From assembly GCA_963828885.1 (NCBI GenBank), contig CAWHGC010000017.1:34522-98521 (forward strand): 64,000 bases of DNA, written 5' to 3'. Below the pieces are notes generated by a model. That model worked only from the letters and a program-made list of their open reading frames with translations. It ran no database searches and was not told the DNA's origin. The position numbers and the translations under genes were made by a program. This DNA is from an uncultured Actinomycetes bacterium (lineage in GTDB: Bacteria > Actinomycetota > UBA4738 > HRBIN12). Positions 7,527 through 62,596 of the stretch are shown in pieces. Within the stretch, counting starts at the first letter, position 1. Each line of letters starts with the position of its first letter.

Positions 7527-7649
7527 CGACGCGCCCCGGTTCCGCTCGATGTGCCGCCCGGCAGGTGGTGCGAACGCCGTCGCTCCCGTCGTCGTCATGA
7601 CCTGCGTGTGATTCGCATCGTCCGGGCCGTCGGATCGTTGCGGCCACGC

Positions 7650-30075: not shown

Positions 30076-32560
30076 ATGCCCGAGGCGAACCTCCACCAGC
30101 TCCGCCGGGCGCTCGCCAGGGCCGATCAGGGCAAAGCGTTGTCCCTCGCCGAGGTCGAGGCGCTGATGGACGCGCGCGGCGACGAACTGGAGCGGCTGCT
30201 CGAGGTCGCCGGCCGCCTCCGCGACCTCGGGCACGGCGACGTCGTCACGTACTCGCGCAAGGTGTTCATCCCGCTCACGATGCTCTGCCGGGACCACTGC
30301 CACTACTGCACGTTCGCGAAGGCGCCCGCGCACCTGGAGCAGCCCTTCCTGTCGATCGAGGAGGCCGTCGCCGATCGCCGACGCCGGTCGCGCGATGGGA
30401 TGCAAGGAGGCGCTGTTCACCCTCGGGGACCGGCCCGAGGACCGCTACCCGGTCGCGCGTGAGTGGCTCTCGGCCCGCGGGTTCGCGTCGACGCTCGACT
30501 ACGTGCGCGCCGTCGCGATCCGCGTCATCGAGGAGACGGGCCTCCTGCCGCACCTGAACCCCGGCGTCATGTCGTACGAGGAGATGGCGCGACTGAAGCA
30601 GGCCTCGGCGTCGATGGGCATCATGCTGGAGACCTCGAGCGACCGGCTCGGCGGCCGCGGGATGCCCCACTTCAACTCACCGGACAAGGTGCCGGCGGTG
30701 CGGATGCGCACGATCGCCGACGCCGGCCGCCTCGCGATCCCGTTCACGACCGGCATCCTCGTCGGGATCGGGGAGACCTCGCGCGAGCGCGCCGAGTCGC
30801 TCATCGCGATCCGCGACGTCCATCGCCGCTACCGCCACGTGCAGGAGGTCATCGTGCAGAACTTCCGCGCGAAGCCGCGCACCGCCATGCACGACGCGCC
30901 CGAGCCCGACGCCGACACGTTCCTCGCCGCCGTCGCGGCCGCTCGGGTCGTGATGGGGCCCCGCATGCACGTCCAGGCGCCGCCCAACCTGTCCGACGAG
31001 GCCGAGCGCCTGCGCCTGCTGGACGCCGGCATCGACGACTGGGGCGGTGTCTCCCCGCTCACCCCCGACCACGTGAACCCGGAGAAGCCGTGGCCGGCCA
31101 TCGAGCATCTCGCCGCCACGACCGCCGCGCGAGGCCTGCGCCTGCGGGAGCGCCTCACGATCTACCCGGAGTTCGCCGCCCGCCCCGACCCGTACCTCGC
31201 CGCGAAGATGCGGGCGCCCGTCGAGGCCCTCATCGGCCCCGACGGCCTCGCGGTCGAGGGGCTGGTGCCCACGCCGATCGCCTGGCAGGACCCGGAGGTG
31301 CGGTGGAAGCCGCGCGAGATCGCGCTCACGTTCGCGAAGGCCGCCGGCGCCGGACTGCGCGAGGACGCCGAGCAGGTGTACGGGGACTTCGACGCCCTCG
31401 AGGTCACGCGCGAGTGGGCGGCCCGCGACGTGTCGCCCGAGCGCCTCGACGCCGACATCAGGGGCGCACTCACGAAGGCGGCCGCCCACCGCCCGATCAC
31501 CGACGGGGAGGCCCTGGCGCTGTTCGCCGCCGAGGGACCGGCGCTCGAGGCCCTCACCCGCGTCGCCGACGACCTGCGGGCCGAGGCCGTCGGCGACGAG
31601 ATCACCTACGTGCTCAACCGCAACATCAACTTCACGAACGTCTGCTACGTGGGCTGCCGCTTCTGCGCGTTCGCGCAGCGGGAGCAGGACCGCGAGTCCT
31701 ACACGCTCACGCTCACGGAGGTGGCCGACCGCGCCGAGGAGGCGTGGGAGCGCGGCGCCAGCGAGATCTGCATGCAGGGCGGTATCCACCCCGATCTGCC
31801 CGGTTCCTTCTATCTGGACCTCCTCGACGCCGTGAAGGCCCGCGTGCCGGATATCCACATCCACGCCTTCAGCCCCATGGAGATCCTCAACGGCGCGACG
31901 AAGCTCGGCGTCTCCTTCGCGGAGTTCCTGTCCGAGGCCCGCGCACACGGCCTCGGGTCGATCCCGGGCACGGCCGCCGAGATCCTCGACGACGAGGTCC
32001 GGTGGGTCCTGACGAAGGGGAAGCTCCCGGCGGACACCTGGGAGGAGATCGTCCGGACGGCGCACGGTCTGGGCATCCGGTCGAGCTCGACGATCATGTA
32101 CGGGCACGTCGACGCGCCGCCGCACTGGGTGGCGCACATCCGCCGGCTCGCGCACATCCAGGACGACACGGGCGGGTTCACCGAGTTCGTCCCGCTGTCG
32201 TTCGTCCACCAGAACGCGCCGATCTACCTCGCGGGCAAGGCGCGTCCCGGCGCGACCTTCGAGGAAGATCTGCGCATGCACGCGGTCGCGCGCATCCTGC
32301 TGGACGGAGTTATCCCCAACGTGCAGGTGTCGTGGGTCAAGCTCGGTGTGCATGCGTCGCAGGCGATCCTGCAGGGAGGCGCGAACGACTTCGGCGGCAC
32401 GTTGATGGAGGAGACGATCAGCCGGATGGCCGGCGCTGAGTGGGGGATCAGCATGGAGCCGTCGGCGTTCGACGACGCGATCCGCGCGATCGGTCGCACA
32501 CCCGCCGTCCGCACCACGACGTACGAACGCGCACCCGTTCGCGTCGTCGAGACGGCCTGA
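30076..32560 (+). CDS. fbiC: Bifunctional FO synthase (CofG+CofH fusion, FbiC), split by one frame change near 30390
   Basis: Radical-SAM CxxxCxxC motifs are present twice (LCRDHCHYCTFAK and VCYVGCRFCAFAQ). The N-terminal 105 aa lie in ORF 29320..30462 and the rest in ORF 30395..32560. Confidence 0.8.
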
Positions 32561-32572
32561 CACGCCGATCCG

Positions 32573-32598
32573 TCAAGCATCTTGACCGAATAGGTCAA
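32573..32598 (+). promoter_or_regulatory. Nested TTGAC dyads GTCAAG-cat-CTTGAC and TTGACC-gaata-GGTCAA in the fbiC-whiB intergenic region
   Basis: Two overlapping inverted repeats. Three further CCCCTTG(A/T)C copies follow at 32600-32716. Confidence 0.4.
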
Positions 32599-32734
32599 TC
32601 CCCTTGACGACACGATTTCTGCCCGAATCCCCTTGCACATGGCCGTTCGGCTCGACACCATGGTCGTGATGGTGCACCACGGGGCAGGGAAAACATCGCG
32701 GTTCCCCCTTGTCAACGGGGCTGTTCTTCGTTCA

Positions 32735-32754
32735 GAATCACACGCGTGTGATTC
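32735..32754 (+). promoter_or_regulatory. 20-bp perfect palindrome GAATCACACGCGTGTGATTC, 5 nt upstream of the whiB SD
   Basis: Read directly from the sequence. A candidate operator overlapping the whiB core promoter/5'UTR. Confidence 0.5.
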
Positions 32755-32769
32755 AGGGGGGAGATCGAC

Positions 32770-32997
32770 GTGCACCACTACATCCCTTGGCAAGAGCGGG
32801 CGCGATGTCGCGAATACGACCCTGAGACGTTCTTCCCCGAGAAGGGAGGTTCATCGAGGGAGGCAAAGCGGATCTGCTCCGAGTGCCCCGTTCGGATCGA
32901 GTGCCTCAACTACGCGCTCCGCCGCGATGAGCGGTACGGGGTGTGGGGAGGCATGAGCGAACGGGAACGTCGACGCCTCAAGCGGATGGCGTCCTAG
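32770..32997 (+). CDS. whiB: WhiB-family transcriptional regulator (Fe-S, WhiB2/WhmD-like by context)
   Basis: Four Cys in the WhiB arrangement (ARCREYDPETFF...ICSECPVRIECLNYAL) and a GVWGG turn with a basic tail. GTG start with AGGGGGGAGA Shine-Dalgarno sequence. Confidence 0.9.
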   Translation: MHHYIPWQERARCREYDPETFFPEKGGSSREAKRICSECPVRIECLNYALRRDERYGVWGGMSERERRRLKRMAS

Positions 32998-33020: not shown

Positions 33021-33429
33021 ATGGCAGCTGCCAGGAAGACGGCAAGCGAAGAAGACCGCGGCGCGCAAGCGTCCGGCAGCCAAGAGGAGCACGGCCGCGA
33101 AGAAGACCGCAGCAACTCGGAAGCGCACCGCCGCCAAGCGGTCCACGGCCGGGAAGAAGGCGGCCGCGACCCGCAAGCGGAAGACCGTGAAGCGGTCCAC
33201 GGCCGGGAAGAAGGCGGCCGCGACCCGTAAGCGGAAGACGGCGGCGCGCAAGCGCCCGGCCGCCAAGAAGGCGACGGCTCGCAAGAAGACGGCCGCTCGT
33301 CGCAAGCCGGCACGCAAGAAGACGGCCGCGCGCAAGCGCCCGGCCGCCAAGAAGGCGACGGCACGCAAGAAGACCGCGGCGCGCAAGCGTCCGGCCGCTC
33401 GCAAGAAGAGCACGGCGAAGCGTCGCTGA
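33021..33429 (+). CDS. Lys/Ala-rich histone-H1/HU-tail-like basic repeat protein, with a frame discrepancy just after the start
   Basis: ATG 33021 has a strong SD (GGAGGG). From 33043 the +1 frame, which has GC3 near 90%, encodes AKKTAARKRPAAKRSTAAKK...(PAAKKATARKKTAAR)n...STAKRR, ending with TGA at 33427-33429. The frame-0 acidic peptide has poor GC3. Confidence 0.6.
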
Positions 33430-33535
33430 CCCTCGCCGTTTCCGATCGTGAAGGGGGGCGTCATGCCCCCCTTCCGTCGTTCTTCAGGAGGTGCGTGCTA
33501 GTCTCCGCGCCGCGCGGCTGACCCGTGCATCCCTC

Positions 33536-39330: not shown

Positions 39331-39387
39331 GCGGCGGTTCGCGCCCGATGCTTGTGAATGACATCCGTGTGATCTAGCCTCTGCCGG

Positions 39388-39609
39388 ATGCGAAGCTGCG
39401 CGAAGATGCGATGCGGCGCCGAACCCGTCGCCACCGTCGCCCTCCACTACGCCGCCCGGGAGGTCGTCGTCACCGACCTGCAGCCGGACCGCGATCCGAA
39501 CCTCCTGGATCTGTGCCGCGAGCACGTCGATCGCATGACGCCGCCGCTCGGCTGGTCCGTGTCGGACCGGCGGTCGCTCGCCGCCTCCGGTTCGGTCTCG
39601 GGCTCCTGA
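39388..39609 (+). CDS. DUF3499-family protein
   Basis: MRSCAKMRCGAEPVATVALHY...DLCREHVDRMTPPLGWSV matches the DUF3499 pattern (RxC-x4-C-G...PAVATLTY...DLC.H...PRGW). It has the same position as Rv3258c next to pmmA. Confidence 0.7.
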   Translation: MRSCAKMRCGAEPVATVALHYAAREVVVTDLQPDRDPNLLDLCREHVDRMTPPLGWSVSDRRSLAASGSVSGS

Positions 39610-45433: not shown

Positions 45434-46171
45434 GTGTGGTCGGAGGCCCTCGAGGTCGTCTTCCCCCGTTCGTGCGCCGGGTGCGGCACCGGCCCGTGGC
45501 CGTTCTGCGGGGCGTGCACGGCCTCGCTGGTGGCGCTGGAGCCGCCCTGGTGCGAGCGGTGCGGCCGCCCCTCCGATCGCCCGGTGGCGTCCTGCCGCGA
45601 CTGCCCGCCGGGATCCATCGACGTCGCGCGCGCAGCGTTCCTGTTCCACGGTCCGGCGCGCCGCGCGATCCACCGGCTGAAGTTCTCGGGCTGGCGGTCC
45701 GTGGCCGATGCGCTGGCGGCCGCCGTCGTCGCCACCGGTCCGCCGTCCGCCGACGTCGTCACGTGGGTGCCGCTCGCGCGGTCGCGGCTGGCCTCGCGCG
45801 GGTACGACCAGGCGAAGGTGCTGGCGCGGGCGCTCGCCGCCCGGACGGGCACGCCGGCGATCGCGCTGCTCGCGCGGGCCGCCGACACAGGACCGCAGGC
45901 GCGTCGCTCAGGCGCCGAGCGGCGGCTCGCCCTCGAGGGCGCCTTCCGGGCGTCGGGTCGGCCCGTGCCGGCGAGCGTGCTGCTCGTCGACGACGTCCTC
46001 ACGACGGGCGCCACCGCCGGCGTCTGCGCCCGCATCCTGCGTGAGGCCGGTGCCCGCCGGGTGTCGCTCGCCACCGCGGCACGCGCGTTCTCGGGCCCGC
46101 TGCCCCCTCGCTATACTCGCCCGCAGGGCCCTCGCCTGGGTCTGTGGTTGCCCGAGGACGTCCCTCGGTAG
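45434..46171 (+). CDS. ComF-family phosphoribosyltransferase (double zinc ribbon plus PRTase domain)
   Basis: CAGCG...CGACT...CERCG...CRDC zinc ribbons, and the PRTase motif VLLVDDVLTTGATAG. Same position as Rv3242c upstream of hpf. Confidence 0.75.
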   Translation: MWSEALEVVFPRSCAGCGTGPWPFCGACTASLVALEPPWCERCGRPSDRPVASCRDCPPGSIDVARAAFLFHGPARRAIHRLKFSGWRSVADALAAAVVATGPPSADVVTWVPLARSRLASRGYDQAKVLARALAARTGTPAIALLARAADTGPQARRSGAERRLALEGAFRASGRPVPASVLLVDDVLTTGATAGVCARILREAGARRVSLATAARAFSGPLPPRYTRPQGPRLGLWLPEDVPR

Positions 46172-46421
46172 TCGACGCCAGTCGCAGGCGAAACGACCCA
46201 CGTAAGGCGGCAGTTGGCCGCTGAGCATGGTGCGGTTTAGAGGTAAGTCCTGCCTCGGGCCTCCGGGTCCGGGAGAGGGCGGGAGTCGTCCCCCTCGGGG
46301 ATCGCGGCGAACGCCCCCGCAGGCGGGTGTGGGGTCAAAGACCAGGTCAGCCAGGCGAGGGCCCACCTTCGGCGAGGGGACCGATCAGGGAGCGACCGAC
46401 ACGACGGCGAGGAGCCCGCAC

Positions 46422-46821: not shown

Positions 46822-47514
46822 GTGACGGACAAGGACAAGGCGCAGGGCGGTTCCGAGCGACTGCGCGTGATGGTCGTCGATGACCATGCGTTGTTCCGCC
46901 GCGGGCTGGAGATGGTTCTGCAGCAGGAGGCCGACATCGAGCTCGTGGGCGAGGCCTCCGACGGCGCCGAGGCCGTGGAGCGCGCGACGGAGCTCATGCC
47001 CGATGTCGTCCTGATGGACGTGCGGATGCCCCGGCGCTCCGGCATCGAGGCGGCGGGCCAGATCAAGGAGGCACTGCCGCACTGCAAGATCCTCATGCTG
47101 ACGATCAGCGACGAGGAGGCCGACCTCTACGACGCGATCAAGGCCGGAGCCTCCGGGTACCTGCTGAAGGAGATCCCGATCGAGGAGGTCGCCGACGCGA
47201 TCCGCTCGGTGTGGGCCGGCCAGTCCCGCATCTCGCCCTCGATGGCGTCGAAGCTGCTGACCGAGTTCGCCGCGATGTCGAAGGCCACGGACGAACGCCC
47301 GCAGATGCCGGCGCCCAAGCTCACCGACCGCGAGATGGAGGTCCTCAAGCTCGTCGCGCAGGGGTTGAACAACCGCGACATCGCGAAGGAGCTGTTCATC
47401 TCCGAGAACACGGTGAAGAACCACATCCGCAACATCCTCGAGAAGCTGCACCTGCACTCCCGCATGGAGGCGGTCGTCTACGCCGTGCGGGAGAAGCTGC
47501 TCGAGATCACGTAG
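46822..47514 (+). CDS. NarL/LuxR-family two-component response regulator
   Basis: Receiver domain (VMVVDDHALFRRGLE...DVVLMDVRMP) and LuxR HTH (LTDREMEVLKLVAQGLNNRDIAKELFISENTVKNHIRNIL). Confidence 0.88.
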   Translation: MTDKDKAQGGSERLRVMVVDDHALFRRGLEMVLQQEADIELVGEASDGAEAVERATELMPDVVLMDVRMPRRSGIEAAGQIKEALPHCKILMLTISDEEADLYDAIKAGASGYLLKEIPIEEVADAIRSVWAGQSRISPSMASKLLTEFAAMSKATDERPQMPAPKLTDREMEVLKLVAQGLNNRDIAKELFISENTVKNHIRNILEKLHLHSRMEAVVYAVREKLLEIT

Positions 47515-62245: not shown

Positions 62246-62596
62246 GGGGGTGTACTGGCTTCGACTTGGACGTTCACCGTCCGGGGGAAGCGGGCCGTGA
62301 TCCCGGATGTCACGTTAAACGCCGGATCAATACAAGCGCCGATAACTACGCGCTCGCTGCCTAATTAGTTAGGTAGCCGTCCCCTCCGGGGCGCCTGCGC
62401 CTGGAGGATGGACGTCGTCAGCAGGCTCACGGACGTGGTTCCGCTCGGGGGCCGCGACCGGACATCGAACCCGAGCTGGCCGAGAGGTGCTCCGCCGGTG
62501 GGAGCCTCGAGGCGAGACTTCACCCACCTGGCTGCGCCCGGAGAAGACCCGGTCGGTCGCCCGAGCACGGGGGTTCGAATCCCCCCACCTCCACCA
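62246..62596 (+). ncRNA. ssrA: Transfer-messenger RNA (tmRNA, ssrA)
   Basis: 5' GGGGGUGUACUGGCUUCGAC pairs with 3' ...CACCUCCACCA to form a 7-bp acceptor stem. T-arm GGGGGUUCGAAUCCCCCC. Internal tag ORF ...AAUACAAGC GCC GAU AAC UAC GCG CUC GCU GCC UAA (ADNYALAA, with an actinobacterial-type YALAA ending). Lies downstream of smpB as in Mtb. Confidence 0.88.

Follow-up and report, generated by a model that had tools for sequence, protein, structure and literature searches.

Gene context of the whiB locus

We analysed a 64,000-nt stretch of high-GC DNA (72%; hereafter, the window) from an uncultured Actinomycetes bacterium (assembly GCA_963828885.1, contig CAWHGC010000017.1, positions 34,522 to 98,521), focusing on a palindrome located between the genes fbiC and whiB. 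The whiB gene encodes 75 amino acids and begins with a GTG codon at 32770. Both its protein sequence and its neighbour genes identify it as a WhiB/WhiB2 orthologue. The neighbours include cofD/fbiA, a F420 ligase, a GT2 glycosyltransferase, DUF5719, YkuD, DUF3499, and pmm, a gene set that matches the surroundings of Rv3257c–Rv3262 in Mycobacterium tuberculosis; the synteny with cofD/fbiA and DUF3499 was also found in Streptomyces. In Actinomycetota as a whole, WhiB/WhiB2 controls cell division, and M. tuberculosis cannot survive without it. The features at the proximal whiB promoter, designated P2, are as follows.

32560, 3' end of fbiC, the upstream neighbour of whiB
32709–32714, + strand, −35 element of P2, TTGTCA (sigma-70-type promoter match)
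32733–32738, + strand, −10 element of P2, CAGAAT (AGAAT invariant in relatives)
32736–32753, no strand assigned, putative McdR/ResR-type operator AATCACA-cgcg-TGTGATT, core of the 20-bp palindrome, at approximately −9 to +9 of P2
32756–32763, + strand, Shine-Dalgarno sequence of whiB, GGGGGGAG (from sequence; G-rich block kept in relatives)
32770–32997, + strand, whiB, WhiB2/WhiB orthologue (Pfam Whib, 2.4e-28; synteny)

A conserved palindrome at the proximal whiB promoter

The perfect 20-bp palindrome GAATCACACG|CGTGTGATTC occupies positions 32735–32754. The first-pass annotation had described it as abutting the Shine-Dalgarno sequence, and it does end one base 5' of it. Its left arm overlaps P2, which reads TTGTCA-N18-CAGAAT (32709–32738), and transcription from P2 is predicted to start near 32744–32746, at the centre of the dyad.

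Conservation was assessed in other genomes. A scan of species-representative genomes gave 80 whiB loci. The close-relative set comprised 58 whiB loci with intact upstream DNA, base pairs within the arms were counted in an alignment of 59 sequences, and a further alignment covered 61 distinct whiB upstream sequences. The first-pass annotation had staked its proposal on conservation at orthologous whiB genes, and the palindrome was conserved in all 58 close relatives. The layout was fixed in each of them: cTTG(T/C)CA, 18 nt, CAGAAT(C/T)ACA, four free bases, and TGT(G/A)(A/G)TT, followed by a G-rich Shine-Dalgarno sequence and, 13–25 nt further, the start codon. The 18-nt distance between the −35 and −10 elements was invariant. 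The four-base length of the dyad centre was the same in these 58 loci and in M. tuberculosis, M. leprae, and Gordonia, while its sequence varied freely (CGCG, TGGA, CCGA, AAAA, and others).

The 8-bp arms were complementary in 59 of 59 sequences, and five of the eight pairs never varied. Among the variable pairs, one was altered on both sides (CG in 51 sequences, UA in six, and UG in two), and the outer pair was GC or GU. A symmetric double change to AATTACA..TGTAATT was present in three loci (L026, L046, and L058). The bases flanking the dyad diverged, with a mean column identity of 63%.

Correspondence to the McdR/ResR operator

McdR (Rv1830) is an essential MerR-family regulator that represses whiB2 and binds AATnACAnnnnTGTnATT around the mapped whiB2 start of M. 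tuberculosis (Zhou et al., mBio 2022, PMC9040748). Binding of ResR/McdR to the M. tuberculosis whiB2 promoter was reported with a dissociation constant of about 0.33 uM, and the protein is reported as ubiquitous among actinobacteria and confined to them (Pal et al., Commun Biol 2023, PMC10336103). The core of the palindrome (32736–32753) agreed with the published motif at 14 of 14 specified bases. The element looks functional, and given this zero-mismatch fit we class the whiB palindrome as a further example of an operator already known; neither the element nor the mechanism is of a new kind.

In electrophoretic mobility shift assays (EMSA), arm mutations or an altered spacer length abolished McdR binding and repression, and changes in spacer sequence were tolerated (PMC9040748). 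The evolutionary pattern at P2, with arms and N4 length fixed and N4 sequence free, mirrors these rules, as evolutionary and not as binding evidence. We consider it probable (roughly 80%) that a dimeric MerR-family repressor of McdR/ResR type uses the palindrome as its operator. The sequence match, its conservation, where it lies with respect to conserved promoter elements, and its repeated occurrence in the window are observed here; the identity of the binding protein and the repressive outcome would be those described in the mycobacterial literature. We infer both an McdR orthologue in this organism and the site of transcription start.

A CRP/FNR-like protein or a WhiB–sigma complex had been named as a candidate regulator at first pass, and the site supports neither. 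CRP/GlxR and Rex operators read TGTGA-N6-TCACA and TTGTGAA-N4-TTCACAA, respectively. The pentamers TGTGA and TCACA are common to these operators and the whiB dyad, but the arms of the latter are everted (TCACA-N4-TGTGA), with the half-sites facing the other way, and no TGTGA-N6-TCACA is formed even with the flanking bases included. The dyad is therefore not a CRP/FNR or Rex site. The FtsR motif did not explain the dyad or the distal palindromes described below, and neither did the BldD, BldM, CRP, or Rex motifs.

Recurrence of the dyad in the window

A search of the window for the full dyad gave three matches, compared with 0.17 expected. With the published consensus AATNACANNNNTGTNATT and up to two mismatches, three matches were found as well (0.02 expected): at whiB (no mismatches), upstream of DUF3499 (one mismatch, 13/14), and upstream of an extracytoplasmic function (ECF) sigma factor gene (two mismatches, 12/14). 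Across 462 kb of whiB loci, AATCACA-N4-TGTGATT with up to two mismatches was confined to whiB promoters, plus one stray match.

The first-pass annotation had taken a 10-mer half-site as the recurring unit. Its exact recurrence at 7605–7614 is real, but the number expected by chance is 0.14 per window, not about 0.04. With one mismatch, the 10-mer was found at background level (four occurrences versus 3.3 expected), and with two mismatches it fell below background (35 versus 55). The unit is the 18-bp dyad and not the half-site. The features at the other two copies are as follows.

39352–39357, + strand, −35-like TTGTGA of the putative DUF3499 promoter (GCTTG(G/T)(G/A)A kept in relatives)
39357–39374, no strand assigned, putative second McdR-type box AATGACA-tccg-TGTGATC, within the 17-nt −35/−10 spacer
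39375–39380, + strand, −10 element TAGCCT of DUF3499, 7 nt 5' of the ATG
39388–39609, + strand, DUF3499 gene (Pfam PF12005), first of the DUF3499–pmm group; pmm downstream in relatives
7596–7613, − strand, weak third box, on the gene strand AATCACA-cgca-GGTCATG, two mismatches, starting in the −10-like GCGAAT
7611–7636, − strand, ECF-type promoter, GATCCGA (7636–7630)-N13-GCGAAT (7616–7611), conserved in relatives

What had been noticed as a near-copy upstream of DUF3499 turned out to be a second full, conserved box. All 12 relative loci fetched (seven lineages, 65–90% protein identity) carried it in the corresponding place, with conserved arms and a free centre. One of these loci (L165) carries AATCACACGCGTGTGAT, in which arms and centre are those of the whiB box except for the last base, C in place of T. 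A TANNNT hexamer lies 6–7 nt 5' of the DUF3499 start codon in most close relatives, the exception being the L171–L173 lineage, where it overlaps the annotated ATG; of five distant taxa without the box, four also have it, Gordonia and Nocardioidaceae among them. This arrangement makes it very probable that the DUF3499 mRNA is leaderless. The box would lie upstream of the transcription start, and its position in a predicted untranscribed promoter spacer argues for a DNA operator and not an RNA hairpin. DUF3499 has been described as the first gene of a mannose-6-phosphate operon (PMC7775120). The mycobacterial study names three direct McdR targets, and DUF3499 is none of them (PMC9040748). The DUF3499 protein itself has an invariant Cys4/Cys9/Cys43/His46 pattern and a confident beta-rich model that gave no fold match in PDB (L064, L066, L074, L077, and L165–L176).

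The third copy precedes an operon that encodes an ECF sigma factor and an RskA-type anti-sigma factor (Sigma and RskA_C domains). On the gene strand the context reads GCGAAT-CACA-cgca-GGTCATG, so the box begins in the −10-like hexamer with the same geometry as at whiB. The promoter GATCCGA-N13-GCGAAT was conserved in about 70 metagenome relatives (loci L085–L164), and the bases 3' of GCGAAT varied among them. The AAT of this match is supplied by the conserved −10-like element of the ECF-type promoter. Among the loci of 80 relatives (137 kb), only L085, which is 97% identical, has the box, and we rejected it as a conserved operator. Being statistically unexpected but not conserved, it would reflect species-specific regulation at most. 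The operon is probably autoregulated and SigK-like; its promoter resembles SigK promoters. The earlier suggestion of one regulator common to whiB, the sigma operon, and the pmmA-side genes therefore holds in part: the dyad is shared by whiB and DUF3499 and conserved at both, which fits a common regulator, but the ECF copy is not conserved.

The whiB promoter in other actinobacteria

The window promoter is homologous to those of distant taxa, as judged from the common −35 element, spacer, −10 element, and dyad layout. Its −35 element TTGTCA aligns with TTGAC(T/G/C) of the Streptomyces, Gordonia, and M. tuberculosis whiB promoters, and its −10 element CAGAAT with TGTAAT of Streptomyces whiBp2 and TCTAAT of M. 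tuberculosis. The M. tuberculosis complex and M. leprae have TTGACC-N17-TCTAAT-CACA-TCAG/GTAG-TGTCATT, with no mismatches to the published consensus, and Gordonia has TTGACG..TGTAAT-CACA-GCAG-TGTGATTC, with no mismatches to AATCACA-N4-TGTGATT. In these three, NACA-N4-TGTNATT stands at a fixed distance from the −10 element. The layout is similar in Streptosporangiaceae and Nanopelagicales (TGTAAT-TTCA-N4-TGTGATTC) and in Streptomyces (TTGACT-N18-TGTAAT-TTCA-CTGC-GTGTCGTTC), whose whiBp2 can be aligned to the promoter of the window position by position. The core promoter was also recognizable in Nocardioidaceae and Egibacteraceae. In Brevibacterium (L078 and L079), the dyad AATGACA-cgcg-TGTAATT is displaced by the length of one arm: the −10 hexamer forms its right arm, so that the dyad falls in the −35/−10 spacer of whiB instead of over the start.

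Comparison with known MerR-family systems

The likeness to the McdR/ResR operator extends to the identical motif, the whiB2 orthologue as the gene concerned, the placement around the −10 element and the start (predicted here), the fixed arms and spacer length with a free spacer sequence, and a promoter homologous to those of M. tuberculosis and M. leprae. The differences from the mycobacterial system are the host, an uncultured and distantly related lineage of Actinomycetota; the 5' leader, predicted at about 25 nt here versus >100 nt in mycobacteria; and the conserved second box in the −35/−10 spacer of the DUF3499–pmm promoter, which is absent from mycobacterial and Gordonia DUF3499 promoters.

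In Streptomyces, the MerR-family protein BldO is a dedicated whiB repressor that footprints about 40 nt over the −10 element and start of whiBp2, both of which were mapped experimentally; bldO is activated by WhiA/WhiB, and whiB is the sole BldO target in chromatin immunoprecipitation sequencing (ChIP-seq) (Bush et al., Mol Microbiol 2017, PMC5485038). BldO thus resembles the system proposed here as a MerR-family repressor acting over a homologous whiB promoter, with the same feedback logic as McdR–WhiB2. It differs in its published repeat, TGxAATTxCA (TGTAATTTCA), whose midpoint falls about 9 bp 5' of the dyad centre considered here. We found TGTAATTTCA at the aligned −10 element of the Streptomyces loci. 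In the window, the aligned position is CAGAATCACA, which has five of the eight specified bases and is not palindromic, so the BldO-type repeat is not kept. From the shared protein family, target position, and WhiA/WhiB feedback, we infer that BldO and McdR are orthologues. The McdR paper does not mention BldO (PMC9040748), and the BldO paper predates McdR (PMC5485038). In Streptomyces and Embleya-like loci (L081–L084), the BldO repeat is closely followed on its 3' side by an McdR-type dyad in degenerate form, AATTTCA-N4/5-TGTCGTT. This hints that BldO and McdR recognize related sites.

Classical MerR-family operators (MerR, CueR, and BmrR) have overlong 19–20-bp spacers, and their regulators activate through DNA distortion. 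They are similar to the window sites in providing a dyad for a dimeric helix-turn-helix protein and, at DUF3499, in the location of the box between −35 and −10. However, at DUF3499 the spacer has the usual length of 17 bp, and the whiB site extends over the predicted start; both features predict repression. Non-classical behaviour of a MerR-family protein has already been described for McdR (PMC9040748).

The distal part of the fbiC–whiB spacer

The remainder of the spacer is a conserved regulatory region in relatives, in agreement with the dense regulatory architecture proposed for it at first pass. Its features are as follows.

32572–32586, no strand assigned, distal palindrome A, GTCAA-N5-TTGAC, GTCAAGCATCTTGAC, conserved in relatives
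32594–32608, no strand assigned, distal palindrome B, GTCAA-N5-TTGAC, GTCAATCCCCTTGAC, conserved in relatives
32633–32638, + strand, −35-like TTGCAC of a candidate upstream promoter, P1 (cTTGCAc kept in the 61-region alignment; putative function)
32652–32661, + strand, block CGACAC(C/G)AT, 17 nt after TTGCAC, conserved

Two nested TTGAC dyads had been described in this region. Both 15-bp palindromes are present, but they are arranged in tandem, 22 bp apart, and the supposed second dyad, TTGACCgaataGGTCAA, is only where the two adjoin. Palindromes A and B were both present in 47 of the 61 distinct upstream sequences, with an offset of 22 bp in 46 of the 47; their centre is free, and some symmetric arm variants occur (GTCAG..CTGAC). 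They are the only GTCAA-N5-TTGAC matches in the window (0.44 expected). Compared with the McdR, BldD, FtsR, and BldM motifs, they fit none. The BldD box consensus is TNAC-N5-GTNA; the distal sites read TCAA-N5-TTGA, and their fourth base and its partner depart from that consensus.

Three CCCCTTG repeats had also been reported, and they are present at 32600, 32629, and 32705. Only CTTG is conserved in relatives, however, the CCCC prefix being specific to this genome, and the repeats belong to three separate elements: palindrome B, the distal −35-like TTGCAC, and the proximal −35 element TTGTCA.

The block CGACAC(C/G)AT contains GACAC (32654–58), a WhiA motif (PMC10243135), and a −10-like CACCAT (32656–61). 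In many relatives, the block reads TCGACACG, near the published motif cGACACGc through which WhiB2 acts (PMC9040748), and WhiA was found at the M. tuberculosis whiB2 promoter by ChIP-seq (PMC13473873). Positions 32633–32661 may represent an upstream whiB promoter, a WhiA/WhiB autoregulatory site, or both. A further block, GGGGCAGGGAA, is conserved at 32681–91.

Proposed mechanism and alternative explanations

An McdR-type repressor would cover both the −10 element and the predicted start of the main whiB promoter, which is of the sigma-A type. With the predicted start at the dyad centre, a bound dimer would occlude RNA polymerase and hold down whiB, an iron–sulfur regulator that drives cell division. 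The circuit would follow the mycobacterial McdR–WhiB2 feedback loop. The same box would also be available in the −35/−10 spacer of the predicted leaderless DUF3499–pmm promoter, with a weaker copy at the ECF sigma promoter.

Several points weigh against this mechanism. A Pfam scan detected no MerR domain in the approximately 48 open reading frames (ORFs) of the window supported by GC content at third codon positions (GC3), and WhiB and ECF sigma were the only regulator families assigned among the ORFs scanned; in M. tuberculosis, the McdR gene is unlinked to whiB2. The transcription start of whiB is a predicted position. All 59 aligned sequences are able to form an 8-bp RNA hairpin, G-U pairs included. 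Finally, the DUF3499 box was absent from Gordonia, Nocardioidaceae, M. tuberculosis, and M. leprae, and DUF3499 is therefore a lineage-specific target.

The palindrome might instead act at the RNA level. In a whiB 5' leader made from a promoter further upstream, it would form a hairpin beside the Shine-Dalgarno sequence or reaching into it, and either translation or the stability of the mRNA would be controlled. The 8-bp stem pairs throughout the alignment, with one pair altered on both sides and G-U variants at others, and is kept by RNAalifold; the window leader folds to −18.4 kcal/mol (z = −2.2), a pyrimidine tract is able to base-pair with the Shine-Dalgarno sequence, and the −35-like element conserved further upstream could be the source of such transcripts. 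Yet the invariance of five of the eight pairs amid diverging flanks, with almost no covariation, points to sequence-specific recognition and not to structural constraint. Neither the extension pairing with the Shine-Dalgarno sequence (74% paired) nor a palindrome around the −35 element (57%) had convincing covariation support, and the whole tested structure was paired at 77.6% versus 75.7% in a shuffled control. The predicted P2 start falls within the loop, so the left arm would be missing from the main transcript. The same dyad recurs between the −35 and −10 elements of the predicted leaderless DUF3499 promoter, and in mycobacteria a protein has been shown to bind the DNA site (PMC9040748). 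Rfam gave no match at E <= 1 in 32480–32850, and the only window matches at gathering score, raiA and tmRNA, lie elsewhere. We regard the hairpin as unlikely. Even less of a case can be made for symmetry as a by-product of promoter constraints (a −10 element ending in AAT and a conserved initially transcribed sequence), with no dedicated binder and chance copies elsewhere. The left arm does overlap the −10 hexamer, the AAT of the ECF match does come from GCGAAT, and half-sites with one or two mismatches are at or below background. But three full dyads against 0.02 expected, the symmetric double changes in L026, L046, and L058, and a dyad conserved with a free centre at a different promoter position upstream of DUF3499 make this extremely improbable.

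Two further explanations accept a protein operator and assign it to another protein. WhiB alone or together with WhiA might bind the site in an autoregulatory fashion, without a separate MerR repressor: binding to the whiB2 promoter was reported for apo-WhiB2 and for the phage protein WhiBTM4 (review PMC6282962), WhiA occupies that promoter in M. tuberculosis by ChIP-seq (PMC13473873), and GACAC is conserved upstream at 32654–58. The WhiA/WhiB determinant, however, is the asymmetric GACAC (cGACACGc) and not an 18-bp dyad, the arms contain no GACAC (PMC9040748, PMC10243135), and WhiB contacts upstream of −35 are non-specific (PMC10243135). A symmetric site with a fixed spacer suits a dimeric helix-turn-helix protein, and McdR binding to exactly such a motif was demonstrated (PMC9040748, PMC10336103), which leaves autoregulation at this site very unlikely. 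The site might also have been reached by convergence, as the operator of a dimeric regulator that is not an McdR/BldO orthologue. The McdR orthologue of this lineage is presumed, DUF3499 lies outside the three named McdR targets (PMC9040748), and the box is missing upstream of DUF3499 in M. tuberculosis and M. leprae. Against this, the whiB promoter, box included, shows an unbroken line of descent through the sampled classes, ResR/McdR is reported to be ubiquitous in actinobacteria (PMC10336103), and convergence on an identical 14-base specification at a homologous promoter position would be unparsimonious. We consider such convergence highly improbable.

Significance of the McdR-type box

If the operator is of the McdR type, the regulon may have been rewired in this lineage to include whiB and the predicted leaderless DUF3499–pmm group as direct targets, the latter through the box in its 17-bp spacer, and perhaps the SigK-like ECF operon in this species. 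In the same picture, a second regulator would act on the tandem GTCAA-N5-TTGAC sites, and BldO/McdR would be one orthologous, phylum-wide whiB repressor working on one ancestral promoter. We advance this extended scheme tentatively, judging its chances to be a little short of even. In a distant, uncultured soil lineage, the McdR box has been kept almost unchanged together with the entire core promoter of whiB, and this persistence supports an ancient, phylum-wide repressor–WhiB circuit. The results connect two literatures, on BldO in Streptomyces and on McdR in mycobacteria. The DUF3499–pmm group is associated with mannose-phosphate and cell-envelope precursors. Its conserved box suggests a coupling, in this lineage, between the supply of envelope sugars and the division switch, and the tandem GTCAA-N5-TTGAC sites mark further regulatory input to whiB. 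The novelties are modest: deep conservation, a lineage-specific second target, and a tandem operator pair.

Other features of the window

Directly 3' of whiB lies a repetitive ORF rich in Lys, Arg, and Ala (AKKA/TAARKR-type, histone-H1-like; 33022–33430), whose frame and start codon are ambiguous. Several genes look split across frames, namely, the N-terminal part of fbiC (~30400), pmm (~40450), secA (~51550), and wzt with its C-terminal domain (~20400), which suggests assembly indels or pseudogenes. The ORF in the pmm region additionally carries a Trm112 domain. A raiA RNA motif (151 bits) at 46131–46359 lies upstream of a LuxR-type response regulator gene (46822–47514), and a transfer-messenger RNA (tmRNA) gene (124 bits) is located at 62246–62596.

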